Shown one piece after another: positions 6,903 to 62,804 of a stretch of 64,000 nt of DNA. The notes below the pieces were generated by a model. That model was given only the letters and a program-made list of their open reading frames with translations. It searched no databases and had not been told where the DNA came from. Source of the stretch: Desulfobacteraceae bacterium UBA5616. Lineage in GTDB: Bacteria > Desulfobacterota > Desulfobacteria > Desulfobacterales > UBA5616. The stretch is from contig DIKO01000092.1 in NCBI GenBank assembly GCA_002423615.1, forward strand, positions 33,367-97,366, read 5' to 3'. How positions within the stretch are numbered: position 1 is the stretch's first letter; each line of letters starts with the position of its first letter. The position numbers were made by a program, and so were the translations under genes.

Positions 6903-6940
6903 ACCCTTTTAATCAACACCCAACCAAGGAGGTCGCCCCT

Positions 6941-7750: not shown

Positions 7751-7771
7751 TTCAGAGGATATGGGGGACGG

Positions 7772-27382: not shown

Positions 27383-27393
27383 GAGGGGAAAAA

Positions 27394-32824: not shown

Positions 32825-32919
32825 TTTTTGATGTCTTCATCGGATATATCGTTTTAGGGTATTTCTTTAATCGGTGATTGTTATGGTCACGTTTTATTTT
32901 TTTCCAAAGGAGGTATTTT

Positions 32920-34119: not shown

Positions 34120-34195
34120 TGCCCCGCTTTTAAGCCCGTTTGAAATCAACATAGCGATCGAATTTCACGATGTTTTTTTATTCTGGGAGGATAAC

Positions 34196-38849: not shown

Positions 38850-38861
38850 GTCGCCTCCTGT

Positions 38862-47100: not shown

Positions 47101-47269
47101 TGGTTCCGCCATGAGATCGCCGCTGGCTGTTGCCGTGGGATTCCGACTTGCGGTCTCCACGGTCCTGACCCTTTTTGTGGTGCCTTCCGCTTATTTTATC
47201 GTGGATACCCTTTCTTCGAAGATTCGTCGAAAGGCGGATAAGCTTGTTATCGGAGCCGAAGAGAGTTGA
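44159..47269 (+). pseudogene. RND (AcrB/HAE-type) efflux permease interrupted by one in-frame TAA at 46247-46249
   Basis: The track ORFs 44159-46249 (696 aa) and 46253-47269 (338 aa, TTG start) are in the same frame (both coordinates are 2 mod 3). Together they make one ~1036-codon AcrB-like protein (...IMDKISKI*GLKDIEKSLKK...). Confidence 0.8.
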
Positions 47270-48023: not shown

Positions 48024-49064
48024 CTATGAAAACGTTTCCCCAACAGGTTTCCCATCGACGATCTGGTCCAGGAATTCCGACATGCCGTAACCTACGAGGC
48101 CATCGCATTTGTATTGGGTCATGGCTTCGGTGATTCTCGTGTTCATCCACTGCCCATCCGGATTCTGACGCCTGTTCCGGAGAGGTATCAACGACAGGAC
48201 CTTTCCGTCAATATGATACTCCCTTTCATCGGTTTTCGCCCAGACTTTAAATTCCGTCTGATAGTCTTTTTCATCGTACTGGGATTTTACGGACGCTTCC
48301 TTGATGTTTAAATATTCGTTGTCCCTGAGAACCATACCGCCGACCCGTTGTTCACCACTGGCCATGGTGATGATGGAGACCATCATGGCAAAGTCCTTTG
48401 AGAAATTCATGGGGAGCCAGCGGTACCAGTAAATGTTCTGCCAGAAGCGGGGACCCCAGGAATGATCCCGAAGGCCGTATCCATCGATGATGTCGAATGT
48501 TTCATCCCCGATACGGAATTTACCCTTTCCCGTCAGGTGCTGTTCATAATGCCCTCTGGCAAAGGCCTCTTCGGCTTTTTCCTGGATCCGGCTGCCGTCT
48601 ACATTCACCGGTTCACCGCCATACATGGGCGAAGCGCCCGTATAGTCGATATCAACCTCGCATTGGACCATGGGGTTTTCGGTAAAAGCCTTTTTAGGGT
48701 CCGCCATGTCATGCGGGTTTTTCATTAAGCACAATTTTCCCTGGTAGGTGACTTTCAGATGTTTGAAGGGCTCTATCACCTCGAATTTCATGCCGCCGGC
48801 ATCAAGGGCGTGGTTATTCGAAATTTCGGGCTTTTTGTACATAAATCCCACCCTTCCATCCGGCAGGTAGAGGCAGCAGGACATTTCGGCGTATTTCTCA
48901 TTTGCGCGATTACCGACCCTGAACCATCCACCAAAAGGTTTTGTGGATGGAACAAAAATATTGGAATACATGCTTTCATTGAAATTGACCGCTTCTTCCA
49001 GAGGATGCATGTATTCATCCTGGGGTTCCAGACGTATTCTGATCCCTTTTTTTCCCGTATCCAT
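48024..49064 (-). CDS. Conserved hypothetical protein; possibly an AttH/CrtC-like beta-barrel (hydratase-like) domain
   Basis: 346 aa, last gene of the ACAD-TetR operon. The only motif I half-recognise is GYGLRDHSWGPRFW, reminiscent of the D..WG..W block of the AttH/CrtC lipocalin-like family. This assignment is weak. Confidence 0.4.
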   Translation of the reverse strand: MDTGKKGIRIRLEPQDEYMHPLEEAVNFNESMYSNIFVPSTKPFGGWFRVGNRANEKYAEMSCCLYLPDGRVGFMYKKPEISNNHALDAGGMKFEVIEPFKHLKVTYQGKLCLMKNPHDMADPKKAFTENPMVQCEVDIDYTGASPMYGGEPVNVDGSRIQEKAEEAFARGHYEQHLTGKGKFRIGDETFDIIDGYGLRDHSWGPRFWQNIYWYRWLPMNFSKDFAMMVSIITMASGEQRVGGMVLRDNEYLNIKEASVKSQYDEKDYQTEFKVWAKTDEREYHIDGKVLSLIPLRNRRQNPDGQWMNTRITEAMTQYKCDGLVGYGMSEFLDQIVDGKPVGETFS

Positions 49065-49092
49065 TTTGATCTCCTTTATTCTACGGTAAATT

Positions 49093-49785
49093 TTAATTCG
49101 GTCCAGTCAGCAGCAGGAAAGACTTTACCGTTTCAACAATAAAGTCCGCATATTCATCCACCGATATTTTTCTCGCTCTGTATTTCCATCGCTTGAGATA
49201 CCAGTCCTGCAACAGGGCTTTCAACAAACTCGCAATCATCTGATGGTTTTTATCCCTGAATACCTTCTTCTCGAAACCTTCCAGCAGAATATCATAAAAT
49301 ATTTTTTCCGATGCAAGCTCCCCAGCCATGGATTTTTCCTGTTTTGCCCGGGGCATGTTTTTAACTTCCATGTAGGCAAAATAAAACCACGGCTGCATGG
49401 CTTCGCTCAAGTAAATATGGGTGCGGATGGCTGTTTCAAGCTTCTCCGCAGCGTCCATATTGTTTTTTAGCCGGTCTTCAAAGATCCGGGACATGATATT
49501 GGAATGCTGGCGCTGAAGCATTTCAAGAAGTTCTTCCTTGCCGGGAAAATAAGCATAGAGAGCGCCCATGCTTAAGCCGCTCTCCTGGCTTAAATTTCTC
49601 ATGCTCATGGCCTGGAATCCTTTTTTATTGCTGATTTTGAGAGTTGCCTCAAAAATCTTTTCCAGATTCCTGACCACGGTGTTTTCTTTCTTAACCCTTA
49701 TGATATCCCGGTTTTCAGAATATATTTCCTGATAAATCGCATCCTTATAGTCCATAAAAATTTTTTTGAATTCAATGTAGCGCAT
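49093..49785 (-). CDS. TetR/AcrR family transcriptional regulator
   Basis: 230 aa. The N-terminal HTH reads LEKIFEATLKISNKKGFQAMSMRNLSQESGLSMGALYAYFPGKEELL. Confidence 0.85.
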   Translation of the reverse strand: MRYIEFKKIFMDYKDAIYQEIYSENRDIIRVKKENTVVRNLEKIFEATLKISNKKGFQAMSMRNLSQESGLSMGALYAYFPGKEELLEMLQRQHSNIMSRIFEDRLKNNMDAAEKLETAIRTHIYLSEAMQPWFYFAYMEVKNMPRAKQEKSMAGELASEKIFYDILLEGFEKKVFRDKNHQMIASLLKALLQDWYLKRWKYRARKISVDEYADFIVETVKSFLLLTGPN

Positions 49786-49818
49786 CAGTCTGAAACCAAA
49801 GATGGATAGGATTGAGGA

Positions 49819-51009
49819 TTATCGGTAATTTTTTAAAATCTGCCGGCTGACTGCGGATTTATGGGCCTCATCAGGTCCGTCGAATATTCTGGATGCCCTT
49901 TCATGGCGATACCAGTAGGACAATATGGTATCATCGGTCATACCCAAAGCGCCGTGAACCTGAATGGCTCTGTCAATGACCTTCATCATCACATTGGCGA
50001 CAAAATATTTGATATACGCGATTTCCTTCCTGGCATTTTTCACGCCGACATTCTGGATCATCCATGCCGCATGGAGCACCATGAGCTTAGCGGCATGAAT
50101 ATCGGCGGCGCATTCGGCTATCCATCCCTGAATGATCTGTTTGTCGGCCAGGACCTGGCCCGGGGCAATAGGACGCTGCACCGCCCGTTTGCACATCATG
50201 TCCAGTGCCCGCTTTGATATGGCGATAAACCGCATGCAATGATGAATTCTACCCGGTCCCAGCCTCTTCTGGGCCAGGATGAAACCGTGGCCTTCGGGCC
50301 CCAGAAGGTTTTTCCGGGGAACGCGGCAATTCTGGTATAAAATCTCCGCATGCGTGCCGAAGCCCTTGCCGGAGTGGCCCATCACCGAAACATTCCGGAC
50401 AAGATTAAAACCCGGGGTGTTTGTGGGGACGATGATCATGCTGGCTCTTTTGTGGGGTTCCGCTTCGGGGTTGGTGACCGCCATGAGTATGGCGAACGCG
50501 GAACCATCCGCACCCGATGTAAACCATTTGTGGCCGTTGATGACATAATCATCACCATCCTTGACCGCCATGGTGTCCATCATCACCGGGTTTGAACCGG
50601 GGAGGTCCACCTCGGTCATCGAGAAACAGCTTCTGATTTTTCCGGCAACCAGAGGGAGGAGGAATTCTTCTTTTTGTTCCGGCGTTGCGTATTCATGGAG
50701 GATTTCAATATTCCCGGCATCGGGCGCCTGGCATCCGAATACGGTTAATCCCAGAGGCGTCTTGGCGATGACTTCAAATACAAGGGCGCTTTCCATCAGT
50801 TGAAGACCCATCCCTCCGACGTCTTTGGGATGGAGGGGCGCCCAAAGTTCCATTTCTTTTACTTTCTGCTGTTTTTCAAACAATTTTTTATCGATGCCTT
50901 CGGAACCCTGGAGTAGAAACTGTTGTTCCAGGGGAATAACTTCTTTTTCGATAAATTCATTCATCAGATCCAACATGGTTTGTGTTTTTTCAGAGACGGT
51001 AAAATCCAT
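49819..51009 (-). CDS. Acyl-CoA dehydrogenase (ACAD10/11/FadE-like, ...RIFDGPDEAHK tail)
   Basis: 396 aa. CFSMTEVDLPGSNP, YVINGHKWFTSG, IHGALGMTDD, RIFDGPDEAH. Confidence 0.85.
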   Translation of the reverse strand: MDFTVSEKTQTMLDLMNEFIEKEVIPLEQQFLLQGSEGIDKKLFEKQQKVKEMELWAPLHPKDVGGMGLQLMESALVFEVIAKTPLGLTVFGCQAPDAGNIEILHEYATPEQKEEFLLPLVAGKIRSCFSMTEVDLPGSNPVMMDTMAVKDGDDYVINGHKWFTSGADGSAFAILMAVTNPEAEPHKRASMIIVPTNTPGFNLVRNVSVMGHSGKGFGTHAEILYQNCRVPRKNLLGPEGHGFILAQKRLGPGRIHHCMRFIAISKRALDMMCKRAVQRPIAPGQVLADKQIIQGWIAECAADIHAAKLMVLHAAWMIQNVGVKNARKEIAYIKYFVANVMMKVIDRAIQVHGALGMTDDTILSYWYRHERASRIFDGPDEAHKSAVSRQILKNYR

Positions 51010-51136
51010 AAAACCCCCTTTTTTTGAGATGAGATTCCCGCCGGCGAGTGTCGGGGAATCCGATGTTGATATTTTTTAAAACAACGCCGATAAAATATGC
51101 CGGCTATAATACACTTTTATTCGACTGCACTTCGTC

Positions 51137-51844
51137 TCAAACATAGGTCAGTAAATCCTGCCGAGAAGGACCGTTCAGGTGGGTGACGGAATTCTTAAGC
51201 TTCAGTTCCATAACCCCTTCCGCGGCATAAAATATCGTAACGGAAGTGTTGTAAAAACTCCATACGTGATCAATGGCCTGTCGATCGGAGAGTCCCTGAT
51301 TCATCTGCATCAACAATGCCAGAACACCGCCGGATGTCACCGCGGCCACCTTTTTGTAAGCCCTGCTCTCATTTACAATAGTTTCGACCGCGGTACGGAC
51401 TCTGTGTTTGAATTGATAAAAGGATTCAATATTCGGATCGGTTATTTTCTGCGAAAGACTCCAGAGCATAACCTTCGTAAATGTCCTTTGGAAACAGCGA
51501 AAATCCGAAAAGCAATGTTTCAGATCTCCTGCTAAAGAAGGATCACCCTGCAGCATGTCTTCCCTGCAATGATGAAGCAGCGGGGAAATGTCAAATTCAT
51601 CCAAACCCGGGAAAATAAGGAGTCGGGTCCCCACGTCGTTTTCTTTCAGACGTGATACGATGGGCGTGGCCGTTTCCATCTGGCGCCTTTTCGAACCGCT
51701 GAATACAACCGGAAAATAGGCCTCCATGTCGATTAAATAATCCGCCAGAAGAAAGGCCTGATCACGTCCCCTTTCAGAAAGCTGGTCGTAGTTTCTTTCG
51801 CCGAATGAAGCCTGACCGTGCCGAATGAAATAAATGTCGGTCAT
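51137..51844 (-). CDS. Histidine phosphatase (phosphoglycerate mutase-like) family protein
   Basis: 235 aa. The N-terminal IYFIRHGQASFG is the RHG catalytic motif. Confidence 0.8.
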   Translation of the reverse strand: MTDIYFIRHGQASFGERNYDQLSERGRDQAFLLADYLIDMEAYFPVVFSGSKRRQMETATPIVSRLKENDVGTRLLIFPGLDEFDISPLLHHCREDMLQGDPSLAGDLKHCFSDFRCFQRTFTKVMLWSLSQKITDPNIESFYQFKHRVRTAVETIVNESRAYKKVAAVTSGGVLALLMQMNQGLSDRQAIDHVWSFYNTSVTIFYAAEGVMELKLKNSVTHLNGPSRQDLLTYV

Positions 51845-52041: not shown

Positions 52042-52124
52042 GCGGACATTTATTGGATAGGGAATTGCACTGATAATGTCCTCGAACCTTAATGGAAGCA
52101 TATGAGCTATTCTATTTTATTGAA

Positions 52125-52910
52125 ATGAAAATTCTCGTCTGCATAAAACAGATCTTCAATCTCGAAACGGATATTTTTGTTGATTCAGACTCCAGATGGG
52201 TCAAAATCAGGCCCCAAACGGAATTTACGTTCAACCGGTTTGATGAATACGCCGTCGAAGAGGCTGTGAGAATCAAGGAGAAGTTTCCCGGAACAACCAT
52301 TGACATCATCAGCGCCGGGCCGGAAAGAGTCATAACGGCCATCAAGCGGCTTCAGGGGATGGGCGCCGACCACGGTATTCATATCAAATGCGATATGCAG
52401 GGATATCTGAGTCCGTTTGAAATTGCCGGCTGGATCGCCAGTGTTGCTGAAAAAAACCAGTATGACCTCATTCTTGCGGGTGTGATGTCCGAAGACGAGA
52501 TGCAGGGACAGGTGGGCCCGACCCTTGCGGCGATTCTGAACCGGCCGTGCGCAACAGCAGTCATCCATCAGAAAATATCCTCCGAAGGGAAATCGGTTTA
52601 TGTGGAAAGGGAAATTGAAAACGGATACAGGGACACGCTGGAAATCCGACTGCCGGCGGTTCTGACCATCCAGTCGGGCATCAACGAGCCCCGCTACCCT
52701 ACCCTTACCCATATGCTCCGTGCGAAGCGCGAACAAATCGAGGTGATCGATAGTGAAAAACTTGAACGCCGGGATCCCCGTCAGATTCTGATGGATATTT
52801 CCTACCCGCAAAAAGTCCGGCCGGCGATTTTTCTTGACGGTTCCGCCCAGGAAAAGGCGAATCGATTGATAACCATTCTAAATGAAAGAAATATTATTTC
52901 ATCCTCTTAA
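52125..52910 (+). CDS. etfB: Electron transfer flavoprotein beta subunit
   Basis: MKILVCIKQ start, FDEYAVEEAVRIKE, LILAGVMSEDEMQGQVGPTLAAIL. The Met at 52125 was chosen over the track start. Confidence 0.88.
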   Translation: MKILVCIKQIFNLETDIFVDSDSRWVKIRPQTEFTFNRFDEYAVEEAVRIKEKFPGTTIDIISAGPERVITAIKRLQGMGADHGIHIKCDMQGYLSPFEIAGWIASVAEKNQYDLILAGVMSEDEMQGQVGPTLAAILNRPCATAVIHQKISSEGKSVYVEREIENGYRDTLEIRLPAVLTIQSGINEPRYPTLTHMLRAKREQIEVIDSEKLERRDPRQILMDISYPQKVRPAIFLDGSAQEKANRLITILNERNIISSS

Positions 52911-52914
52911 AATT

Positions 52915-53895
52915 ATGGCATCATCCGTCTATATCATTGCGGAACATTTCGATGGAAAGACCAGGCCGGTCACCTATGAACTGGCGTCTTTCGGCATAAA
53001 ACTTCAGAAATCCTTAAAAGACGCGGTTTCTTTCCTTGTTCTGGGGGATGATCCGGAAATTATTTCCAGGGAAATCGCCGAAAACACGGGCCTCGATGTG
53101 CTGGCATTTTCGGTTCCTGCCCTGAAATCCTACCATCAGGAGATTTACATCCGCATATTATCCAACTGGCTGAAGGAAAACCCTTTTTCATATGTATTAA
53201 CGGCCCACACCACCCAGGGAATGGACTTTGCGCCGGGTCTTTCAATTGCGACCAACGCGGGATGTATCACCGGTGTTGAAGGTTTTTCTGAAAAAGAGGG
53301 TCGGATATCCTTTCAACGATCTCTATTCAATGGAAAGATCAGCTCGGATATATCTCCGATAACGGAACGAACGATTCTTTCCGTGTTACCCGGAACCCAT
53401 AAACCAATGGATTTCAATCCCCGTGCGCCGGGTAAAGTGGAAGTCCGAGCCATCGATTTTTCCCCCGAACTTATCCGCAATAAAGGACTTGTCCGCTCGA
53501 GGACCGGGAGTCAGGCCCTGGGGGAAGCGGAAATTATCATCTCGGCCGGAAGGGGTATCGGGAAACAAGAGAATCTGCCGTTGATTTACCAACTTGCCGA
53601 ACGATTTTCAAAGTCCGCCGTAGGGGGTTCAAGGCCCCTTTGCGATCTGGGATGGCTGGGGTATCAACAGCAGGTCGGCGTTACCGGCCTGAGCGTTTCT
53701 CCCCGCCTTTATTTCGCCTGCGGCATATCCGGGGCCATCCAGCATCTATCAGGGATCCGGGGTGCTGATTTTATTGTGGCGGTGAATACAGATCCCACCG
53801 CCGCCATTTTCAACATGGCGGATGTCTGCATTGTCGAGGACGTTCTTTCCTTTATCCCGGTGTTGATTGAAGCTCTGGACAAAGCAGCGCGATAG
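52915..53895 (+). CDS. etfA: Electron transfer flavoprotein alpha subunit
   Basis: The C-terminal FAD-binding blocks are IIISAGRGIG, AVGGSRPLCDLGW, QVGVTGLSVSPRLYFACGISGAIQHLSG and IVAVNTDPTAAIF. Confidence 0.88.
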   Translation: MASSVYIIAEHFDGKTRPVTYELASFGIKLQKSLKDAVSFLVLGDDPEIISREIAENTGLDVLAFSVPALKSYHQEIYIRILSNWLKENPFSYVLTAHTTQGMDFAPGLSIATNAGCITGVEGFSEKEGRISFQRSLFNGKISSDISPITERTILSVLPGTHKPMDFNPRAPGKVEVRAIDFSPELIRNKGLVRSRTGSQALGEAEIIISAGRGIGKQENLPLIYQLAERFSKSAVGGSRPLCDLGWLGYQQQVGVTGLSVSPRLYFACGISGAIQHLSGIRGADFIVAVNTDPTAAIFNMADVCIVEDVLSFIPVLIEALDKAAR

Positions 53896-53929: not shown

Positions 53930-54709
53930 TTATGATTTCGCCATGTTTTCCGCCTGCAGGGCTGCTCCGAAGGCCGTAACGGCCTGGGGATCTTCCGGGG
54001 CTTCCAATTTGATGCCCAGGGTTGTTTCAATCCTTTTTACGAGTCCGATATCCAATGCGCCTCCACCCGTGAGGGCGCAGGGCGGTTCCATGCCGATGCG
54101 GTCGGCCAGGGTCGCTATTTTGGTCGCCAGGGCCTGGTGTACCCCGGCAATGATATCTTCCTTCGGGGTGCCTTCTGCAATTCTCGATACGGCTTCGGAT
54201 TCGCCGAATACGGCGCAGCTCGTTGTAAAGCCGACCGGATTTTTGGATTTCAGGGACAATGGACCGATTTCATCCATACTGACCTGCAGGACCCGGGCGA
54301 TCACCTGCAGGAATCTCCCGCTCCCGGAAGCGCATTTTTCACTGACCACAAAATTGATGATCTTTCCCTCGTCATTTATACGAATCACCTTGGACGACTG
54401 GCCCCCGATCTCGATCAGGGTTTTGGCATGGGGGAACAATTGATGGATACCCATGGCGCTGCAGGTCAGGTCGCTTACCTTGGAATCGGCGAACTTCACC
54501 CGATCCGAACCGCAACCCGTGGCAAATACGGAGGCGATGTCCGATCTTTTGAGATTCGACAGTTTCAAAATTTCGCCAAAAACCGTATCGGCGGCATTCT
54601 GAAAATTCGAGCCTGAAGCGGTCTTGTAAAAAAATAAAAGTTTTTCGCCCCTGCTGATCGCCATTTTGGTTGTAACCGAGCCCACGTCGATGCCGCCGTA
54701 CCAATCCAT
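53930..54709 (-). CDS. BadF/BadG/BcrA/BcrD-type ATPase subunit (259 aa) of a class-I benzoyl-CoA-reductase-like enzyme
   Basis: ASKHA fold: GGIDVGSVTTKMAI, IEIGGQSSKVI, LTGGGA. The cluster-ligating cysteines lie in SEKCASGSGRFLQ and TSCAVFGESE. Confidence 0.8.
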   Translation of the reverse strand: MDWYGGIDVGSVTTKMAISRGEKLLFFYKTASGSNFQNAADTVFGEILKLSNLKRSDIASVFATGCGSDRVKFADSKVSDLTCSAMGIHQLFPHAKTLIEIGGQSSKVIRINDEGKIINFVVSEKCASGSGRFLQVIARVLQVSMDEIGPLSLKSKNPVGFTTSCAVFGESEAVSRIAEGTPKEDIIAGVHQALATKIATLADRIGMEPPCALTGGGALDIGLVKRIETTLGIKLEAPEDPQAVTAFGAALQAENMAKS

Positions 54710-54737
54710 TGCGTTTCCGCCTTTCCGTTATCGCCGC

Positions 54738-55580
54738 TTAAAAGACCCTCGCAGTTGTCAGTTTCCGTTCTTTTATCTTTATCGCCTTACCGCTTTCCAT
54801 AGCCTTCTCAACCAGTTCCTTTCCAAGAAGAGCCGCTCCCATGGCGCCGGTAATCAGGGGCTCCCGACAGATATAAACCGGCCTGCCCAGGTGGCTTTCA
54901 AGCGCTTTCACCATCCCGGTATTTTTTGCCACCCCTCCTGTGAACACGACGTCACCCTCGATTTTGAGCTTGGATGCCATCCGGAAAGCCCTTCCAGCAA
55001 TGGCCTCATGCAGACCTGCTATGATATCTTCGACGGGAATTCCTTCCGACAACTGAGAGACGACTTCCTGTTCAGCAAAAATGGTGCAGATACTGCTGAT
55101 TTTGACTTTGTTTCGGGCTTTTAAAGACAAAGGCCCCATGTCTTTGATATTGACGCCCAGTGTTTCGGCAATGACTTCCAGAAACCTTCCCGTGCCGGCG
55201 GCGCACTTATCGTTCATCACAAAATCCACAACCCTGTTGTTTGCGATTTTGATGCCCTTGGCATCCTGACCGCCGATATCAATCACCGTGCCGGCATTTG
55301 GAAAAAAATGCAGTACCCCTCTGGCATGGCATGAAATCTCCGTAATCTGTTTGTCCGCAAAGGGGACATTGATCCGTCCATAACCCGTTGCGACGACATA
55401 ATCCACTGCTTCAAATGGGATCCGGGCCTGCGCCAGGGCGTCTTCCATGACGATGTTGGCCAGATGTCGATGTTCGGGTCCGGTGGGCCCGATAACCTGG
55501 CCTCTTATTCCCTCGCTGTAGATAATCACCTTGGTCATGGTAGAGCCGATATCGATTCCGGCAAAATACTTCCCCTTCAC
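54738..55580 (-). CDS. BadF/BadG/BcrA/BcrD-type ATPase subunit (280 aa), a distinct paralog of the previous gene
   Basis: AGIDIGSTMTKVII, IDIGGQDAKGI, NDKCAAGTGRFLE, SSICTIFAEQE, FTGGVAKN. Confidence 0.8.
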   Translation of the reverse strand: MKGKYFAGIDIGSTMTKVIIYSEGIRGQVIGPTGPEHRHLANIVMEDALAQARIPFEAVDYVVATGYGRINVPFADKQITEISCHARGVLHFFPNAGTVIDIGGQDAKGIKIANNRVVDFVMNDKCAAGTGRFLEVIAETLGVNIKDMGPLSLKARNKVKISSICTIFAEQEVVSQLSEGIPVEDIIAGLHEAIAGRAFRMASKLKIEGDVVFTGGVAKNTGMVKALESHLGRPVYICREPLITGAMGAALLGKELVEKAMESGKAIKIKERKLTTARVF

Positions 55581-55646
55581 GAAACATTCTCCAATGCGAT
55601 GGCGTATTGATTTCGGGTTTCCGGATAGCCGCTCTGACGGCGGACC

Positions 55647-56804
55647 TTACGCGATAATTTCCAGAAACGCTTCCACTCTGTTTTTCAGCTGAGCTTCGGC
55701 GGCCATGGTGTATTCATGTTCCAGATACATGGCGGGAAGCCCGATTTTCTCAAAATACGCCTTTAAAGCGGGTACCTCATATCCATGGGTGTCACAGTAT
55801 TTGACGGATTGAAGCAAGATCCCGTCCACATGCCAGTCCCTTGCGAAATCTTTCAAATATCCGAATCTGGATTCCATTTCTTCTTCAAAGGTGGAGGAAG
55901 ATTCCCGGAATGTCCGGGGGCATTTAATTTCGGACAAATACCGCTTTACGATGCCGTCCATGGGATCACTCGTTGCTTCGACATCTGCCCAATAGTGGCG
56001 GGTTCCCACACAAATATCATCCATCACCACATGGGCGTTCAGGCTTTCAATCATCTGGATCAGGTTGGTTTCCGTAAGGGGGCTTCCCCACAGCATTAAT
56101 CTTGTATCCTTCTCCCCCGGCCCATTTCCCCTGGAAAGCGCTTCCTGGATGATCTCTTCCAGCATGATGGAGCCCTCCTCTATGGGCATGCACATCAGCG
56201 CAATCATAATTTCAAGGTTTTCGGCGCCGGACAACAGAGGGGGATTTTCTTTTCGGAGATCGTAAAGTTTCCGTACCAGCGCCCGTTGGCGGTTATGAAC
56301 CCTGATCTCTTGTTGAATTCGCTCCCGGTCTAAAGCGCGCCCCGTATACGCTTCCATGGCCTTTTGAAACATGATCAGCTTTTCCTTGAACTGCTCGAAG
56401 GAATTTTCCCGGACCACATGGGGCATATCAATGTAATGATGGAAAGGCAGCTTCAATTCATGTTCCCAGATACGGCAGAATTTTTCCTGGCAGTCACAGG
56501 AATGGGCCGTGACAAAACCTTCCATAAAATCGTATTTCCCCTTCATGGCCATGTCCAGACTCGAACGGATGATAGGGCAGACAATGGTGGGGATGCTGGA
56601 ATCCGCCTTGGTGATGGCCTCATTGATGCTCCCCTGCACCCGGAAGGGGACGAAATCCATGCCGGTTATCAGTTCCAACGGAGGATAGGAGCAATAGTAA
56701 CCCATGATTTTTTTTCCTTCGGCCTTTAATTCCCTGGCTCTTAGCCCCCGGTCTTCATATATTTTCCTTGCTTTGGCAAAGCCGTGTAAACTCGCTGTTG
56801 TCAT
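55647..56804 (-). CDS. BcrC/BzdN/HgdB-like subunit (2-hydroxyacyl-CoA dehydratase/benzoyl-CoA reductase family), 385 aa
   Basis: Family recognised from overall pattern and conserved Cys positions (YCSYPPLELI, CPIIRS, HSCDCQ, DTHGYE). It sits between the large subunit and the ATPase genes. Confidence 0.7.
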   Translation of the reverse strand: MTTASLHGFAKARKIYEDRGLRARELKAEGKKIMGYYCSYPPLELITGMDFVPFRVQGSINEAITKADSSIPTIVCPIIRSSLDMAMKGKYDFMEGFVTAHSCDCQEKFCRIWEHELKLPFHHYIDMPHVVRENSFEQFKEKLIMFQKAMEAYTGRALDRERIQQEIRVHNRQRALVRKLYDLRKENPPLLSGAENLEIMIALMCMPIEEGSIMLEEIIQEALSRGNGPGEKDTRLMLWGSPLTETNLIQMIESLNAHVVMDDICVGTRHYWADVEATSDPMDGIVKRYLSEIKCPRTFRESSSTFEEEMESRFGYLKDFARDWHVDGILLQSVKYCDTHGYEVPALKAYFEKIGLPAMYLEHEYTMAAEAQLKNRVEAFLEIIA

Positions 56805-56835
56805 TGGACGACTCCTTTCCGTTCAGACGATTGAA

Positions 56836-58173
56836 TTACCATTCCAGGCCTTTTCGTTTTCTTTCCCCGCGGTGATAATCCATGGATTCCTCAAACGCCT
56901 CCGCGTTTTTCAGGACCAGATCCGGATCGAAAACCGTAAAATCGACGATATCTCCCTCCATATTCATGCTGGGAACAAGGAGTTCCTCCTTTAAGATGTT
57001 GGCCGCATGCGGAAGCCAGAAGGTCGCGGTCCGGCAGGACAAAAGGGAATGGGTGATGAATCCGTCTACCTGATATTCCCTGGCCCAATTGTAATAATAC
57101 TGAACAGGTCCAAATAGCGGATAATTCTTTTCCTTGGCCTTCCGGATATGTCCAACATTTACCCAGTAAGTCCACCGGGTCAACCGTTCCAGAACGCTGT
57201 CGCCGGTTTTAAGCGACATGGGTTCCGGAGGATGGTACCCCTGGCTTTCCACGACGAAATTCCATCCTCTTTCCGCGAGTTTTTCAAAAAAATCCAGGCT
57301 GTGCCAGGGCGGCAGCTCGGCAAACATCAACCGGTATTTTTCGGGCGTTACGGCTCCGATGCCGGCATCCGTCCTGGCTTTGACCTCTTCATAAACCTGA
57401 TGGTAAAGGTTCAAGGCATCCTTGTCGTAGGTCATGTAATACCCGGGCACCATCAACGTCCAGAAATCCCGGGAATGCATGGGGCAGGGTTTTGCCTTGC
57501 GCAATTCATTAATCTCCCACCACAGCTGAAAAACCTTTTCCTGGTTTTCCAGATAATCTTCCACCAGATCCATATCGATCTTCTTCCCCAGAAGGTTTTC
57601 CAGAAATTCGATAAACCGTTCCAGTTCCTTCACCTTGTGCCGGATATTGTGCTCATGGATGTCCGAATCAATATCCTCCGTGTGGTCGTAGCTGGGCGTG
57701 TCAATGGTCCATACGGGCACATCATAGTATTGCCGCAGGGCTTGAAACCATTTAAAGCGGGTATCACAGGCAATTCCCGACCCCAGCATGAAGGTGGGTT
57801 CCGCCATTCCGCCCAAAGGGGCATCAGGCGGAATTTTCCCCAATTTTTTCATTTCGGCAGCATACCCGATATGGTTTCTGGAATACCCGCAGAGATGCGT
57901 CGGAAATCCTTCGGCATCACAAATGGCCTGGTATTTCTGGGCCATGCCGGTCGACGCACACACGGTTCCGTAATTTTCCGGATAAACGGGCGTTACCCCC
58001 ATGGCCCGCATGACAATGTCGCCTTCCCACCAGTTGACCATGCTCCAGGCCAACGGCCTTCCTTCATTGGCGGCCGTCACGCCTTCGGCGTACATTTTGT
58101 TCACCATGGGGCGAACGATGTTCCTGGATTTCAAACGGTTGATAAACTTTTTGGTTTTTTCTTTATCCGCCAT
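56836..58173 (-). CDS. BcrB/BzdO/HgdA-like large subunit, ~445 aa
   Basis: MADKEKTKKF... The ATG at 58173 is preceded by AAGGAA; the track start at 58191 is TTG. It belongs to the same family as the downstream 385-aa protein (W.EGDIVMRAMGV.PVYPENYG, LCGYSR, IACDTR, HSLLSCR). Confidence 0.7.
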   Translation of the reverse strand: MADKEKTKKFINRLKSRNIVRPMVNKMYAEGVTAANEGRPLAWSMVNWWEGDIVMRAMGVTPVYPENYGTVCASTGMAQKYQAICDAEGFPTHLCGYSRNHIGYAAEMKKLGKIPPDAPLGGMAEPTFMLGSGIACDTRFKWFQALRQYYDVPVWTIDTPSYDHTEDIDSDIHEHNIRHKVKELERFIEFLENLLGKKIDMDLVEDYLENQEKVFQLWWEINELRKAKPCPMHSRDFWTLMVPGYYMTYDKDALNLYHQVYEEVKARTDAGIGAVTPEKYRLMFAELPPWHSLDFFEKLAERGWNFVVESQGYHPPEPMSLKTGDSVLERLTRWTYWVNVGHIRKAKEKNYPLFGPVQYYYNWAREYQVDGFITHSLLSCRTATFWLPHAANILKEELLVPSMNMEGDIVDFTVFDPDLVLKNAEAFEESMDYHRGERKRKGLEW

Positions 58174-58250
58174 TTCAGGGTTCCTTTCCAATGGTTATAA
58201 AAATCGAACTTAAAGTTGATTTTTGGGGAATAATTTCTTTTTATTATTTT

Positions 58251-58279
58251 ATATTACCTTGAAAATAAAAACTGTCAAG
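58251..58279 (-). promoter_or_regulatory. Sigma70-like promoter of the reductase operon
   Basis: Minus strand: TTGACA (58279-58274), 17 nt, TAATAT (58256-58251), about 78 nt upstream of the ATG at 58173. Confidence 0.5.
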
Positions 58280-58280
58280 G

Positions 58281-58302
58281 CATTGTTTCTTCATTGTTTC
58301 TT
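58281..58302. repeat. Perfect tandem 11-mer (CATTGTTTCTT x2) immediately upstream of the reductase -35 box
   Basis: Read directly: 58281-58291 and 58292-58302 are identical. Relative to the minus-strand promoter the repeat occupies roughly -37 to -58, a typical activator position. Confidence 0.6.
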
Positions 58303-58479: not shown

Positions 58480-59808
58480 ATGAGCAAGAATCTGGTATCC
58501 ATCGTCAAATATGAAAAACCCTATGAATCCGTCCGAAAAGCCGTTGAATTGGCCGGGGGTCTGGACCATCTTCCGTCCAAGGCCAAAGTGTTCATCAAAC
58601 CCAATATCGTCTTCTGGACCAAGGCTGTGGTTTTTCCCAAATGGGGCGTCATCACGACATCCAGAGTTATCGAAGATATCGTGGTTATGCTCAAGGAAAG
58701 AGGCATCGATGATATCACCATCGGGGAAGGCATGGTGCTGAGTGAATCCAAGGACAAGGAAACTCCGGCCCACGCATTCGAATACCTGGGTTACAATACA
58801 CTGAAGAAACGGTACGGCGTCAAGGCGATGAATGTTTTTGACGGTGATATGGAAAAGGTGGATCTTGGAGACGGGGTTGAACTGACCTTCGGCGCTGAAA
58901 TTATCCACAGTGATTTTGTGGTGGACATTCCCGCCATGAAAACACACAATCAAACTGTCGTGAGTCTGGGAATTAAGAACCTGAAAGGCATGATCGACTT
59001 AAAATCCCGAAAAATCTGCCATAACGCAGACCCCAGCAGGGATCTGAACTTTCACGTCGCGAGGCTCGCGGACAAAATGCCGCCCATGCTGACCATCATC
59101 GACGGCATCTACACGCTTGAAAAAGGGCCTTCCTTTGACGGACGCATGAAAAGAAGCAATATTCTCATCGCCTCATCGGATGTTCTCTCGGCGGATATGG
59201 TGGGCGCAAAGATCCTCGGATATGAGCCGTCCCAGGTCCCCCATCTGGTCTTTGCGGCGGGAAACCGCAAACGGCCGCATGATTTGTCGGATGTGGAAGT
59301 CGTGGGTGAAAAAATCGAGGACCTTCAGGACTTCCATAAAAGCGATTTCGAGTACATTGAAGACGACAAGGGCTGTATGCCCGCCGCTCTGAAGAAAAGC
59401 GGCATTGAAGGGTTGTACTACCGGAAATTCGACCTGTCACTTTGCACCTACTGTTCCGGAACCAACGGCATGATCCTGACCGCCATCCGCAGCGCCTGGA
59501 AAGGAAACAAATGGGATGACGTCGAGGTTCTGACCGGAAAGCAGAAGAAACCCACCCCGGGTATGTCCAAAACCATCCTGGTGGGAAAATGCATGTATGA
59601 AGCCAACAAGGACCATCCCGACATCAAGGAAATGATCGCCATCAAGGGATGCCCTCCCCAGCCGAAAAACATCATCAAAGCCCTTCAGCAAGCCGGCATC
59701 GAAGTCGATCCCACGATTTTCGACCACGCTGAAATGGCACCCGGCCTTCTCATGAGCCGTTATGCGGGAAACCCCGAATTTGAAGAATCCTTTTTTCAGA
59801 TCGCTTGA
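58480..59808 (+). CDS. DUF362 domain protein with a Cys-rich C-terminal extension
   Basis: 442 aa. The N-terminal VFIKPNIV...TSRVIEDIVVMLKERGIDDITIGEG...MKTHNQTVVSLGIKNLKG is DUF362-like. The C-terminal ~110 aa carry CTYC...GKC...KGCPP. AGGAGG lies upstream. Confidence 0.7.
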   Translation: MSKNLVSIVKYEKPYESVRKAVELAGGLDHLPSKAKVFIKPNIVFWTKAVVFPKWGVITTSRVIEDIVVMLKERGIDDITIGEGMVLSESKDKETPAHAFEYLGYNTLKKRYGVKAMNVFDGDMEKVDLGDGVELTFGAEIIHSDFVVDIPAMKTHNQTVVSLGIKNLKGMIDLKSRKICHNADPSRDLNFHVARLADKMPPMLTIIDGIYTLEKGPSFDGRMKRSNILIASSDVLSADMVGAKILGYEPSQVPHLVFAAGNRKRPHDLSDVEVVGEKIEDLQDFHKSDFEYIEDDKGCMPAALKKSGIEGLYYRKFDLSLCTYCSGTNGMILTAIRSAWKGNKWDDVEVLTGKQKKPTPGMSKTILVGKCMYEANKDHPDIKEMIAIKGCPPQPKNIIKALQQAGIEVDPTIFDHAEMAPGLLMSRYAGNPEFEESFFQIA

Positions 59809-59852: not shown

Positions 59853-59890
59853 CCGATTAACCTCTGCAAGGTTTTAAATCGGAGGTGGAC

Positions 59891-61315
59891 ATGCAAAAGC
59901 CCATCATTGAGGAGCTTAAGCCTCTTTTTCTTCCCGAATCCATCGCCATTATCGGCGCCTCCAACACCGACGGAAAATGGGGAAACATGATGGTCACCCG
60001 TCCGGTTCAATCCGGTTACAGGGGCCGCATTTACCCCATCAACCCCAAGGAAAAAACGATTTACGGCCTTAAGGCCTACCCGAGCATAGGCGATGTACCC
60101 GATGCCGTGGATCTGGCCATTTTCACCATACCCGCTGAAATGGTTCCTTCCGCCATGGAAGCGTGCGTGAAAAAAGGGGTCCGGGCCGGGGTGATTATTT
60201 CCGCGGGTTTTGCCGAAACCGGCCCAAAGGGGGAAAAACTTCAGAACGAAACCGCCCGTATCGCCCGAAACGGCGGGATTCGTTTCATCGGTCCCAACTG
60301 CATGGGGTTCTGGAGTTCCACCATCCGGCTGAACACGGCCTTCCAATTCATGCCCAAACCCGGCGGCATTTCATTCGTGTCCCAGAGCGGCACCATGGGC
60401 GGATATCTCCTTGAAACGGCCAACAACAAGGGATACGGCTTCAATTCATTTTTAAGTGTCGGAAACCAGGCGGATTTGTCCATGGCCGATTATGTCGAAT
60501 ACCTGGGCGAGGACCCCATGACCAAGGTCATCGTGCTCTATATCGAGGGCCTTAAGAATGCCGGCCGTTTTATGGAAAATGCCGCAAAGGTCATCCGGAA
60601 GAAACCCATCATCGTTTACAAGGCCGGACGGACCGAAAGCGGGTCAAGGGCCACCATGAGTCATACCGCTTCCATCGCCGGTTCGGACACGGTATTTGAA
60701 GCGGCCTGCCGGCAGGTGGGAATCATCCGGACCTACGACGTCATTCACGCCTTTGACCTGGCCGAAGCCCTTTCTAAACAACCCCTTCCCGGGGGAAACC
60801 GTGTGGCCATCGTTTCCGGCGGGGGCGGGCACTGCGTGGTGTCCACCGATGCGTGCGGCGTTCTGGGTCTGGAAGTTCCGGAGCTTGATAAAAAAACCAG
60901 TGAAAAGATACACAAACTGCTCCTGCCCCATGCCCCGTTCCCCAAAAACCCCATTGACATGGCCGCCGACCCGAGGCTGGATACGGTCACCAAAATATTG
61001 TCCATTCTGGCGGAAGATCCCCATATCGACATCATCATGGCCACGGCCCCGTTTTTCAGAGATATAACCGAGCCGAAAATTATTCGGAAACTATTGGATA
61101 CGGTTGTGGCCCTGTCGGAAATTCCCCATCAGTTCGGCAAACCCCTGCTTGCCATGACCCACCGAAGCCGGATGCAGGGAATTTTTTTCGAAATCATGAA
61201 AAACAAGGGGATTCCTTTTTATGAATTCCCTGAAGAAGCAGCCCGGGCGGCCTATGGATTGTTCCGGTATTCGGAAATCCGAAAAAGGTTCGCGTCTTCT
61301 CCGGAAGCCTCTTAA
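59891..61315 (+). CDS. ADP-forming acyl-CoA synthetase alpha-type subunit (second paralog)
   Basis: LFLPESIAIIGAS, RFIGPNCMG, VSQSGTM, SGSRATMSHTASIAGS (His loop). The ATG at 59891 lies 5 nt after GGAGG; the track GTG at 59885 overlaps the RBS. Confidence 0.8.
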   Translation: MQKPIIEELKPLFLPESIAIIGASNTDGKWGNMMVTRPVQSGYRGRIYPINPKEKTIYGLKAYPSIGDVPDAVDLAIFTIPAEMVPSAMEACVKKGVRAGVIISAGFAETGPKGEKLQNETARIARNGGIRFIGPNCMGFWSSTIRLNTAFQFMPKPGGISFVSQSGTMGGYLLETANNKGYGFNSFLSVGNQADLSMADYVEYLGEDPMTKVIVLYIEGLKNAGRFMENAAKVIRKKPIIVYKAGRTESGSRATMSHTASIAGSDTVFEAACRQVGIIRTYDVIHAFDLAEALSKQPLPGGNRVAIVSGGGGHCVVSTDACGVLGLEVPELDKKTSEKIHKLLLPHAPFPKNPIDMAADPRLDTVTKILSILAEDPHIDIIMATAPFFRDITEPKIIRKLLDTVVALSEIPHQFGKPLLAMTHRSRMQGIFFEIMKNKGIPFYEFPEEAARAAYGLFRYSEIRKRFASSPEAS

Positions 61316-61325
61316 CCGCCAGTCT

Positions 61326-62804
61326 TCAAGAGTTTCGGCGGTCCCGGGACAGGTAGTAATCCGCAACCCGGCGAAGCACCGAAAATGCCTGCCCTCCGCT
61401 CTCGAAGCAGGGGATGCCGTGGTCCGTGTAAAATTTACGGGCCTTTAATTTGCCTTCTTCGACGGGAAGATGATCCGGATCCGATGAGATTTCCGGGATG
61501 ACCACTACCAGGGGTTTCCGGGTTCGCTGAAAAATTTCCCGGGCCGCGGGTACGATTTTCCTGTGGAACTCGAAATTTTCCGGATTGAAACCCGGATTTT
61601 TCCCCTCTTCACGGGTGAACGTGCTTAAAACATAGAAGAGAAGCTGATACAGAACCAGAAAATCGATGTTATCCTTCCCGGCCATGGCTTCCATGATGGG
61701 GATCATTACCGCAGGCGGCATTCCGGGATTTGCCAGATCCGCCGGATTACCAGCAGCGCCACCGGAAGGGGGCAAGAGTTTTTTCATCATATCAATGGTT
61801 TCAGGGTCCAGCACCGGAATTTCAAATCCGTGGACCGACGCCGCATCAAGCGCCTCAACGCAGCGTAACCCGCCCCCGGCCAGAACACCGGCGCCTTTTC
61901 CACTAAATTCATCCAGAAGACAGAAAGCCATCATACAGTCACTTAAATCCTTAATGTCCCCTGCCGCGGTCGCCCCTGCCGACTTGACCGCCGCTTCCCA
62001 GGTTTTTCTCGATCCTGCCATGGACCCGGTATGGCCGATGGTACCCCGTCTTCCCTGTTCGGTCAGTCCTCCCTTATGAATGACCACGGGTTTTTTTGCC
62101 GCGCAGGCTTTCAGGGCTTTAAAAAAAGAAGCGCCGTCCTTCACCCCCTCCAGGTATGCGCCCACAACCCGGGTGTTTTCATCCTGCTCGAAATATCGCA
62201 GAAGATCGACCACATCGACATCACTCCCATTGCCGTAACTCACCAGAACGGAAAACCTTACACCCCTGCCCTGCCCCATGTTGACGATATCACAGGCGCC
62301 GCCGCCGCTTTGGGAAATAAATCCCGCTGATCCGCTTTCCCGGGAAAAATCAACCCCCGGCAAGAGTGTCAGGCCGCCGGCCGGGCAGTAAATGCCGAAA
62401 CAATTGGGGCCCACGATCCGCATGCCGGTTTTTTGCGCAAGGTCGATCAACTCGGATTCCAGTTTTTCTCCTGATTCTCCGGCTTCCCTGAACCCCGCGG
62501 ACAGGATTTCCACGCCTTTTACTCCCTTTTCAGCGCAAGCCTTTACAGCGGGGAGCACAAAAGCACCGGGGGTTGTAATTATCGCCAGGTCGACGGGATC
62601 CGGTACGGCCGTGATATCCGGGAACGAATACAATCCCTGGATCCGGGTTTCTTTCGGGTTGATGGGAAAAAGTTTCCCTTTAAATCCGAACCGCATTAAA
62701 TTTTCCAGGATTCTTCCGCCGAATTTTGCCGTATCGTTGGATGCACCGATAACAGCGACGCTTTCCGGCATAAAAATGTGATTCAATGGATGATCGTTCA
62801 TCAT
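61326..62804 (-). CDS. ADP-forming acyl-CoA synthetase alpha-type subunit (third paralog)
   Basis: 492 aa. IFMPESVAVIGAS, RIVGPNCFG, ISQSGGG, QGRRGTIGHTGSMAGS. It is convergent with the previous gene, with stops 10 nt apart. AGGAG lies 2 nt before the ATG. Confidence 0.8.
   Translation of the reverse strand: MMNDHPLNHIFMPESVAVIGASNDTAKFGGRILENLMRFGFKGKLFPINPKETRIQGLYSFPDITAVPDPVDLAIITTPGAFVLPAVKACAEKGVKGVEILSAGFREAGESGEKLESELIDLAQKTGMRIVGPNCFGIYCPAGGLTLLPGVDFSRESGSAGFISQSGGGACDIVNMGQGRGVRFSVLVSYGNGSDVDVVDLLRYFEQDENTRVVGAYLEGVKDGASFFKALKACAAKKPVVIHKGGLTEQGRRGTIGHTGSMAGSRKTWEAAVKSAGATAAGDIKDLSDCMMAFCLLDEFSGKGAGVLAGGGLRCVEALDAASVHGFEIPVLDPETIDMMKKLLPPSGGAAGNPADLANPGMPPAVMIPIMEAMAGKDNIDFLVLYQLLFYVLSTFTREEGKNPGFNPENFEFHRKIVPAAREIFQRTRKPLVVVIPEISSDPDHLPVEEGKLKARKFYTDHGIPCFESGGQAFSVLRRVADYYLSRDRRNS

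Follow-up and report, generated by a model that had tools for sequence, protein, structure and literature searches.

A putative ATP-driven radical enzyme from a deep lineage of the BCR/HAD superfamily in Desulfobacteraceae bacterium UBA5616

The 64,000-nt stretch of the Desulfobacteraceae bacterium UBA5616 genome analysed here (contig DIKO01000092.1; hereafter, the window) carries an operon of four genes, all on the minus strand, encoding a large catalytic-type subunit (B-like), an electron-relay subunit (C-like) and two different ATPases of the ASKHA (acetate and sugar kinase/Hsc70/actin) type, with intergenic gaps of 31, 66 and 28 nt (Table 1). The operon had been described in an original prediction made from the letters of the window, and open reading frame (ORF) calls confirmed that it is real, with the same strand and the same protein sizes. 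Pfam assigned B-like and C-like to HGD-D (PF06050, E-values of 9e-49 and 1e-83), in line with their proposed place in the BcrB/BcrC–HgdA/HgdB family, and both small proteins to BcrAD_BadFG (PF01869, 9e-65 and 6e-49). The B-like ORF could extend over 56836-58191 from a TTG codon; public gene calls use the ATG at 58173, which is preceded by a Shine–Dalgarno ribosome-binding site, GGAAAGGA. The promoter-like site listed in Table 1 lies between the operon and the divergent DUF362 gene, in an intergenic stretch of 288 nt where the count of such sites does not exceed the expectation from shuffled sequence, and a search for riboswitches or other RNA elements upstream of the operon found none.

The cluster is flanked by only 34 nt on one side and 288 nt on the other, so there is no room for a ferredoxin gene beside it. 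As had been predicted, it includes no ferredoxin-like ORF, and no ORF with the CxxCxxCxxxCP motif was found anywhere in the window. A relaxed scan for small Cys-rich ORFs likewise found none near the cluster, with an imperfect filter that missed orf94 of the bzd locus, probably because of ORF-length calling. The convergent etfBA genes and the divergent DUF362 gene lie as originally reported.

Table 1. Coordinates of the operon genes, local signals and other features in the 64-kb window
Feature	Position	Strand	Basis or remark
B-like catalytic subunit (HGD-D), 445 aa from ATG	56836..58173	-	ORF call, Pfam, alignments, AlphaFold2 (AF2) model
C-like electron-relay subunit (HGD-D), 385 aa	55647..56804	-	ORF call, Pfam, Cys alignment
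ATPase1, 280 aa, GTG start, ASKHA 'archerase' subunit	54738..55580	-	ORF call, Pfam, motifs
ATPase2, 259 aa, divergent ASKHA paralog	53930..54709	-	ORF call, Pfam, motifs
Promoter-like site TTGACA-16-TAATAT (10/12), 78 nt upstream of B-like ATG	58251..58278	-	best sigma-70-like match
Terminator-like hairpin directly past ATPase2 stop codon	53888..53906	-	weak; consensus match only
etfB and etfA, convergent to operon	52092..53895	+	ORF calls, Pfam; kept beside module in L006
Cys-rich DUF362 protein, divergent to operon	58480..59808	+	beside module only in closest relatives L005, L006
ADP-forming acyl-CoA synthetase, alpha-type	59885-61315	+	kept in L005, L006
ADP-forming acyl-CoA synthetase, alpha-type	61326-62804	-	kept in L005, L006
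Histidine phosphatase, acyl-CoA dehydrogenase, TetR regulator, DUF7064 protein	48024..51844	-	block syntenic with L006
Bcd/AcrC-like acyl-CoA dehydrogenase (ACAD)	49819-51009	-	inside block 48024..51844
ADP-forming acyl-CoA synthetase, alpha-type	17005-18432	-	
Family III CoA-transferase pair	26096-28686	+	tandem
Class III (c3-type) multihaem cytochrome	30388-30954	-	
Stand-alone ATP-grasp_5	31384-32061	+	
ACAD ORF, first of overlapping two	32878-34119	+	
ACAD ORF, second of overlapping two	34031-35314	+	
Family III CoA-transferase pair	37632-40082	-	tandem
AcrB/RND efflux pump gene	44159-47269	+	in-frame TAA at 46247-46249
IS66-family transposase (with DUF6444)	62826-63905	-	abuts conserved block

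Two HGD-D paralogs combined with BcrAD_BadFG ATPases carrying two cysteines each characterise the benzoyl-CoA reductase/2-hydroxyacyl-CoA dehydratase (BCR/HAD, or 'archerase') superfamily. This combination was found here, and sequence comparison places the enzyme in the superfamily as a deep lineage of its own, apart from the characterised reductases and dehydratases. All NCBIfam equivalog cutoffs were missed 2- to 7-fold. B-like scored 111 bits with HadB (cutoff 750), 90 with bzdO (449) and 65 with BcrB (487), and C-like 220 bits with the double-cubane reductase model NF040772 (350), 162 with bzdN (454), 126 with BcrC (421) and 124 with HadC (700). The two ATPases passed only the generic 'CoA_E_activ' domain model, with 175 and 149 bits for bzdQ (380), 172 for BcrA (578) and 126 for BcrD (313). 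Among solved structures, the matches were HadB (1e-20), BzdO (2e-19) and MbdO (1e-10) for B-like; BzdN (4e-42), DCCP (5e-32) and HadC (2e-27) for C-like; and MbdQ (1e-73) and HadI (3e-66) for ATPase1, while ATPase2 matched MbdQ and HadI about equally (1e-54). The original description of a class-I-like reductase thus holds as far as a complete four-subunit BCR/HAD-superfamily system is concerned, but the system is a member of no class I BCR type.

Homologs of B-like are numerous (824 at E ≤ 1e-10 in a 90%-clustered database) and carry generic or conflicting names: several members are called 'benzoyl-CoA reductase subunit B' by JGI versus '2-hydroxyacyl-CoA dehydratase' by NCBI. A genome scan detected the family in at least 276 species-level genomes, and the 80 that were listed are all metagenome-assembled genomes (MAGs), mostly of Dehalococcoidia, with others from Desulfobacterales, Syntrophales, Leptospirales and Bathyarchaeia. 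The closest genomes (82–84% identity) are Desulfobacteraceae/Desulfobacterales MAGs. A 125-kb JGI contig from sample 'MLSBCLC' (SRR636569), probably a hydrocarbon-degrading enrichment, matches the window. An exhaustive search of 1.84 billion cluster representatives returned 132 clusters at E ≤ 1e-30, with identity falling smoothly from 46% to about 25%, and the representatives looked up were all MAG proteins with generic names. No description of this lineage was found in a literature search.

Loci of the family were fetched and their genes called by a greedy longest-ORF method; censuses of neighbouring genes include related, non-independent loci. The order B–C–ATPase1–ATPase2 occurs in 50 of the 66 informative loci (82 in all, 16 of them cut by contig ends), far more than expected by chance. 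The other informative loci comprise 12 with B and C without a nearby ATPase, two with B, C and ATPase1 without ATPase2, and two with B without an adjacent C. Some genomes contain several B/C copies and fewer ATPase pairs, which suggests that the ATPases are shared. Two outgroup relatives (36–37% identity) have the order small–large subunit and a single ATPase.

Unusual arrangements were seen in a few loci. In three Chloroflexota/Dehalococcoidia loci with B and C only (L015:12497-14145, L018:5670-7364 and L020:12275-13980), a paralogous pair of PAC2-family ('proteasome assembly chaperone') genes lies directly downstream on the opposite strand, in the place of the ATPase genes elsewhere. In a 65%-identical relative (L085:8112-9746 and 6723-8108), the ATPase genes are divergent from B and C and stand beside a gene for a Pyr_redox_2/Pyr_redox_dim flavoprotein, with shikimate-pathway genes downstream.

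Phylogenetic trees were constructed by neighbour joining with few references, namely PDB-derived sequences (that of BzdO confirmed at 100% identity) plus the bzd locus. The reference set is without Thauera BcrABCD and ThnBCDE; a BzdO homolog search, dominated by orthologs at ≥85% identity, recovered neither. On these trees, the B-like family forms a clade with 100% bootstrap support that sits among the catalytic-type subunits without a partner and is not nested in the BzdO clade (4% for B-like with BzdO). The large subunits are not within HadBC, the only dehydratase clade compared. Identity of B-like to BzdO, MbdO and HadB is alike, at 20–22%, and the family profile scored HadB at 134 bits versus 121 for BzdO. 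An AF2 model of B-like (pLDDT 88) gave TM-scores of 0.80 to BzdO, 0.80 to MbdO, 0.77 to HadB and 0.64 to DCCP; with the first three indistinguishable, fold comparison was rejected as a means of telling reductase from dehydratase.

The structure of BzdNO provides the defining features of a class I active site (PMC11971306): the catalytic [4Fe-4S]-OH2 site of BzdO involves Cys95, Cys128, Cys380, Glu65 and His131, and contacts to the thioester and the ring are made by Tyr97, Gln274, Tyr298, Trp46, Leu302 and Leu383. The predicted [4Fe-4S] ligands of B-like are C95, C136 and C380, and Glu66 lies in a YPEN motif identical to that which holds the catalytic Glu of HadB. B-like retains the equivalents of Tyr97 and Trp46. 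Arg139, which 18 family members share without exception, stands in the place of His131; Gln274 is replaced by an invariant Leu, Leu383 by Ala, and the Glu381-Gly-Leu segment after the third Cys by Arg-Thr-Ala (MbdO likewise has Arg-Thr). Tyr298 and Leu302 would correspond to Trp304 and Val308, next to an indel where the alignments disagree. Seven invariant residues, W48, W49, R139, H233, R235, W304 and H314, are specific to the family and occur in none of the references (BzdO, MbdO, HadB) nor in the nearest outgroups.

These data bear on a possible role as an ATP-dependent, class-I-like reductase of aryl-CoA or alicyclic-CoA, which would transfer two electrons, at one ATP each, via a double cubane and deliver a dienoyl- or enoyl-CoA to neighbouring hydratase, dehydrogenase and thiolase. 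The Trp at the position of Trp46, which has no counterpart in HadB, MbdO or the outgroups, points to such a reductase, but all eight Bcr/Bzd equivalog models fail, the catalytic subunit shows no affinity to BzdO or MbdO, and His131, Gln274 and the Glu381 segment are replaced.

C-like contains all six ligand cysteines of a double-cubane [8Fe-9S] cluster (C38, C76, C103, C265, C295 and C337; ligand features as in the review PMC7317905), aligned with those of BzdN and DCCP, while HadC is without the first and fourth of them and MbdN without three. Its clade has 100% bootstrap support and is a weak sister of BzdN (48%; 27% identity), in which it is not nested. The double cubane has been proposed to store two electrons (PMC11971306), and its presence as in BzdN would suit an aryl-CoA reductase. 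However, the small subunits of both single-ATPase outgroup relatives have all six cysteines, and three of the six are replaced (patterns DCCxSC and DCCFNC) in a subclade of Dehalococcoidia whose four-gene operon and neighbours are the same. Because of these two observations, the double cubane is not diagnostic of the reaction type here, and it was rejected as a reductase marker. The subclade itself (C-like subunits of L021, L023, L024, L026, L028-L030, L034, L039, L053 and L059) represents a natural transition from a double to a single cubane within one family and parallels the difference between BzdN and MbdN.

The same subunit raises the question of a DCCP-like reductase acting on a small molecule or on some substrate other than a CoA ester, with the acyl-CoA genes nearby by coincidence. 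The double-cubane reductase model is the best NCBIfam match of C-like, DCCP is among its best PDB matches, and the physiological substrates of DCCP are unknown (PMC11971306, PMC7317905). Nevertheless, such a function appears very improbable: the 220 bits remain below the 350-bit cutoff, the enzyme is heterodimeric, with only three Cys and a BzdO/HadB-type catalytic architecture in B-like (TM-scores of 0.77–0.80 versus 0.64 to DCCP), two ATPases take the place of the single homodimer DCCP-R, and the acyl-CoA context recurs across phyla and both domains.

The Cys motifs reported for the small proteins, NDKCAAGTGRFLE with SSICTIFAEQE and SEKCASGSGRFLQ with TSCAVFGESE, were found verbatim, and both cluster-bridging cysteines are 100% conserved in the ATPase1 family and in the ATPase2 family. 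ATPase1 has a canonical DIGGQDAK motif (DIGGQDxK in its family), while the phosphate-2 motif of ATPase2, EIGGQS, is degenerate, with GGQS in 73% of its family sequences. BzdP and BzdQ from the real bzd locus and the lone ATPases of the two outgroup systems were added to the motif comparison. All five homodimer-type ATPases compared have GGQD, and each two-ATPase system has a canonical and a degenerate member: GGQD/GGQT in MbdQ/P, GGQD/GAEE in BzdQ/P and GGQD/GGQS in ATPase1/2.

The two ATPases are 37% identical to each other, and the orthologs of each form a clade with 100% bootstrap support across bacteria and Bathyarchaeia; the clades are not sisters (13%). ATPase1 is 49% identical to MbdQ, 46% to HgdC and 44% to HadI, and 57% (alignment) or 54% (BLASTP) identical to the lone ATPase of outgroup L087, with which it clusters at 96% bootstrap; ATPase2 is therefore the added paralog. 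ATPase2 groups with BzdP at 52%, possibly owing to long-branch attraction, and with MbdP at 3%. Because the ATPases are ancient paralogs and the large subunits lie outside HadBC, the outcomes that the original prediction had named as damaging to it, recent duplication of an HgdC-type activator and large subunits inside dehydratase clades, did not materialise. That the ATPases are ancient paralogs of which one has a degenerate site, as in MbdQ/P and BzdQ/P, favours an aryl-CoA reductase; still, the rule that a heterodimeric ATPase marks a reductase, on which the original prediction relied, proved a weaker discriminator than assumed, as did the double cubane, and DCCP is a reductase with a homodimeric ATPase.

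The proposal that a surrounding island processes the product was not borne out. The GC content is flat across the window, the acyl-CoA genes are interspersed with housekeeping genes (IleRS, EF-G, pyruvate kinase, Lgt/LspA), and synteny with the closest full-length relative, L006, covers only about 15 kb (48.0-62.8 kb, between the CoA-synthetase alpha genes and the DUF7064 gene). The idea of an aromatic catabolic island was rejected on the basis of the flat GC content and the interleaved housekeeping genes.

Gene neighbourhoods across the family differ in detail. In Dehalococcoidia loci, genes for an SCPx-type thiolase and a DUF35 protein lie directly upstream of the module and a MaoC hydratase gene directly downstream, and a split methylmalonyl-CoA-type mutase, a Bcd/AcrC-like ACAD, a FabG/PhaB-like short-chain dehydrogenase/reductase (SDR) and an HdrD/EMO-like CCG protein are encoded nearby. 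Desulfococcus/Desulfobacterium-type loci encode a thiolase, an Hbd that passes the NCBIfam cutoff, a crotonase and a zinc-dependent alcohol dehydrogenase (Zn-ADH) unlike Had, and loci of the window's own subclade ACAD and EtfBA, DUF362 and ADP-forming CoA synthetases. Outgroup L088 and Bathyarchaeia L076 likewise have synthetase-like genes of the latter kind on the flanks of the module, and a family III CoA-transferase gene is found directly upstream, on the same strand, in Bathyarchaeia L055 and L076. The Bacillota outgroup relative also has an SDR, an enoyl-CoA hydratase (ECH), ADP-forming CoA synthetases and a CoA-transferase, the latter from the AcetylCoA_hydrolase/transferase family and not family III. 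A 685-aa thiamine pyrophosphate (TPP) enzyme is encoded beside the module in five loci of Desulfobacterales, Dehalococcoidales and Bathyarchaeia (L011:13359-15416, L025:212-2257, L041:6309-8408, L076:16650-18869 and L036:2077-4059; mutual identity 26–38%); its best full-length solved relatives are oxalyl-CoA decarboxylase (OXC) and 2-hydroxyacyl-CoA lyase/synthase (HACL), and its scores are far below the NCBIfam cutoffs.

Features that would suit such a reductase of rings occur in several loci: a Phenol_MetA_deg porin gene in L086 and L089, ECH and Zn-ADH genes directly upstream of the module in L086, L089 and L009, in the same order as bzdW-bzdX, and a pyruvate:ferredoxin oxidoreductase (PFOR) gene after the module in L086 and L010. 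The thn operon offers a precedent: behind its reductase genes, ordered thnB(C)-C(B)-D(A)-E(D), come thnF, which codes for a ferredoxin, and an oxidoreductase gene, and further along there are genes for MaoC, thiolase and hydroxyacyl-CoA dehydrogenase. Ring-opening hydrolases are encoded there too. These facts, like the similarity to MbdONQP in subunit sizes and implied order and the probable origin from a hydrocarbon-degrading enrichment, speak for an aryl-CoA or alicyclic-CoA reductase. However, identification of the ECH and Zn-ADH pair as Dch and Had was rejected, since the L086 Zn-ADH scored 49 versus 339 bits (TIGR03201) and is 22% identical to BzdX; the ECH of this locus is of the short-chain crotonase type. 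No dch/had/oah equivalogs or ring hydrolase were found in the window, nor any ring-pathway enzyme among the neighbours of the family loci. A canonical small ferredoxin gene lies within 5 kb in 3 of the 82 loci, and the window has none, unlike thn and bzd. The partners are C4-type enzymes and a methylmalonyl-CoA-type mutase, the latter without a role in a ring pathway. Altogether, an aryl-CoA or alicyclic-CoA reductase is unlikely, and nothing in these gene sets points to the non-benzoate aromatic or alicyclic substrate originally proposed: the partners are short-chain beta-oxidation-type enzymes, a mutase, CoA-transferases and a TPP enzyme, without dch/had/oah.

The four gene products appear to make up a complete radical enzyme of the BCR/HAD superfamily that is driven by ATP; electron injection at the expense of ATP is well supported. 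ATPase1 and ATPase2 would form a heterodimer holding one bridging [4Fe-4S] cluster with two Cys from each, which fits their conserved motifs. ATP hydrolysis would drive a low-potential electron from this cluster to that of C-like and then to that of B-like, where, by homology, a ketyl-type radical would be generated on an acyl-CoA thioester. Judging from the gene context, the substrate may be an aliphatic CoA ester, most likely a 2-hydroxyacyl-CoA, which would be converted into 2-enoyl-CoA by alpha-elimination. We thus tentatively favour 2-hydroxyacyl-CoA-dehydratase-like chemistry on an aliphatic CoA ester, that is, a dehydratase-like catalyst with an acquired BCR-style heterodimeric ATPase rather than an aromatic-ring reductase.

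The product is probably 2-enoyl-CoA, because the triad of hydratase, 3-hydroxyacyl-CoA dehydrogenase and thiolase is supplied by non-orthologous enzymes across lineages: MaoC, SDR and SCPx-thiolase/DUF35 in Dehalococcoidia, and crotonase, Hbd and thiolase in the Desulfobacterales type. The window counterpart of the triad is the Bcd/AcrC-like ACAD with EtfBA. In other lineages, the 2-enoyl-CoA would then be hydrated, oxidised and thiolysed, while in the UBA5616 bacterium the adjacent ACAD and electron transfer flavoprotein (ETF) would reduce it. The partner set, the position of the CoA-transferase, the OXC/HACL-like enzyme, the single-activator relatives, the absence of ring enzymes and ferredoxin, and the distribution in energy-limited fermenters all favour this dehydratase-like chemistry, as do the profile score of HadB, no lower than that of BzdO, and the YPEN motif common to HadB and B-like.

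A number of observations weigh against it. The BCR-like asymmetry of the ATPases, a canonical plus a degenerate member, is common to both reductases compared, Mbd and Bzd, and we know of no 2-hydroxyacyl-CoA dehydratase with two different ATPases. The electron-relay subunit is BzdN-like, with a BzdN-type set of double-cubane ligands and the weak sister position noted above, and the Trp46 equivalent also favours a reductase. PFOR adjacency does the same, since it could indicate a stoichiometric demand for ferredoxin. Of 285 neighbours in 56 loci, none was a 2-hydroxyacid dehydrogenase, and the nearest family III CoA-transferase genes in the window are about 14 kb from the module. The HadB and HadC equivalog scores fall far short of their cutoffs, and the large-subunit trees cover HadBC alone among the dehydratases.

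A stoichiometric ATP-coupled reductase of a non-aromatic CoA ester would accommodate both the asymmetric ATPase with a double cubane able to carry two electrons and the aliphatic beta-oxidation neighbourhood; for example, an alpha OH, NH3+ or halide could be removed reductively, with a ketyl turned into an enoxy radical and a second electron quenching the latter. Four polar residues that BzdO, HadB, MbdO and the outgroups lack (Arg139, His233, Arg235 and His314) hint at a different active-site chemistry, and the adjacent PFOR genes in two loci agree with such a reductase. Such a function nonetheless seems distinctly unlikely: a reaction of this type has no precedent known to us in the superfamily, it is not thermodynamically demanding, and spending one ATP on every electron would be a waste next to the use of a dehydratase and an enoyl-CoA reductase; ACAD and ETF are encoded next door. 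The hydratase, dehydrogenase and thiolase partners also argue for an enoyl-CoA and not for a saturated acyl-CoA.

It is possible, if doubtful, that the lineage represents a fourth functional type combining an asymmetric heterodimeric ATPase, a BzdN-type double-cubane relay and aliphatic acyl-CoA chemistry, which could be a variant of the 2-hydroxyacyl-CoA dehydratase reaction or a new stoichiometric reductive alpha-elimination. The enzyme mixes marks of the reductases (heterodimeric ATPase, double cubane) with those of the dehydratases (context, nearest relatives), and is therefore a natural test case for what sets the recycling versus the consumption of the electron in this family. The lineage is as distant from BzdNO as BzdNO is from HadBC and occurs widely among Dehalococcoidia, Desulfobacterota and Bathyarchaeia of the subsurface. 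In studies of MAGs from Dehalococcoidia, Bathyarchaeia and sulfate reducers, BCR-like genes are routinely taken as a sign of anaerobic aromatic degradation (PMC5736913 is one example). If the enzyme belongs to a fourth type, part or much of what has been annotated as 'class I benzoyl-CoA reductase' in these uncultured lineages, and used to infer such degradation, may carry the wrong assignment. Should it prove to be no ring reductase, the aromatic-degradation potential estimated for the deep subsurface would have to be revised.

Other features of the window concern acyl-CoA metabolism and genome structure. The two tandem pairs of family III CoA-transferase genes are reminiscent of heteromeric BbsEF-type enzymes; for the minus-strand pair, the only one scanned, the best NCBIfam models were formyl-CoA, succinate-glutarate and mesaconate transferases, none of them reaching its cutoff. 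Six ACAD paralogs are encoded, and two of their ORFs overlap by 89 nt when counted from the first start codon, the true start of the second being probably further downstream. The three ADP-forming acyl-CoA synthetase alpha-type genes have no fused ATP-grasp beta part, and the lone stand-alone ATP-grasp_5 gene is distant from all of them. Beyond the IS66-family transposase, the longer public contig carries two radical SAM genes, a geranylgeranyl-reductase-like flavoprotein gene and an LplA/DUF116 gene. The AcrB/RND gene is broken into same-frame ORFs of 696 and 338 aa (Pfam ACR_tran at 2-698 and 703-1020), which is due to a nonsense mutation, a pseudogene or an assembly error. The c3-type cytochrome gene and the matches to Desulfobacteraceae MAGs are consistent with a sulfate-reducer-like strict anaerobe.

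Among characterised systems, BzdNOPQ of Aromatoleum sp. CIB (PDB 8S02, PMC11971306) resembles the window enzyme in having two HGD-D subunits and two different ASKHA ATPases, one canonical and one degenerate, a six-Cys small subunit, and a large subunit with three Cys, Glu, Tyr97 and the Trp46 equivalent, with a B-like fold at a TM-score of 0.80. Identities are 22–23% to BzdO, 27% to BzdN, 39% to BzdQ and 33–35% to BzdP. The window enzyme differs in the replacement of His131 by Arg and Gln274 by Leu, in failing the equivalog models and in having the large subunit first, as opposed to the order N-O-P-Q checked on the real bzd locus; it has no nearby ferredoxin, NADPH:ferredoxin oxidoreductase or Dch/Had/Oah, whereas the bzd locus carries the ferredoxin orf94, and the hosts of its family are strict anaerobes. 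The gene order had been described as unlike those of bcr and bzd and like that of mbr, and it does differ from those of bzd and thn. As far as PDB names and sizes tell, it agrees with that implied by the name of MbdONQP of Thauera chlorobenzoica (PDB 9G87/9GAI), whose sizes of 445/388/269/273 compare with 445/385/280/259 in the window. MbdQ is the best PDB match of ATPase1 (1e-73, 49%), both MbdO and B-like have C-R-T after the third cluster Cys, and the second ATPase has a degraded GGQD motif in both systems (GGQT in MbdP, GGQS in the window). On the other hand, identities to MbdO, MbdN and MbdP are 20%, 24% and 30%, MbdN keeps three of the six Cys of C-like and has no double cubane, and the window lacks a ring-pathway context.

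DCCP with DCCP-R from Carboxydothermus hydrogenoformans (PDB 6ENO, 7YYL) shares the six double-cubane Cys and an ASKHA ATPase as electron donor, but both subunits of DCCP, a homodimer, carry a double cubane and its one ATPase is homodimeric, in contrast to the heterodimer with one double and one single cubane and two ATPases predicted here. The thn enzyme, set beside the window by description only, is likewise a four-subunit, class-I-like system of strictly anaerobic sulfate reducers. The (R)-2-hydroxyisocaproyl-CoA dehydratase HadBC with its activator HadI (PDB 3O3M, 4EHT) is 22% identical in both subunits and differs in its one homodimeric activator, versus two non-identical ATPases, and in the three-Cys [4Fe-4S]-SH site of HadC, versus six Cys in the beta-type subunit of the window. 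It shares the three Cys and the YPEN Glu with B-like, and HadB has the best profile score (134 bits) of the references. The likeness to this group extends to the nearest uncharacterised relatives, which are single-activator systems, and, in part, to the gene context: a family III CoA-transferase gene precedes the module in some family loci, and ACAD and EtfBA genes, which follow the dehydratase genes in had and fld operons, adjoin it in the window.

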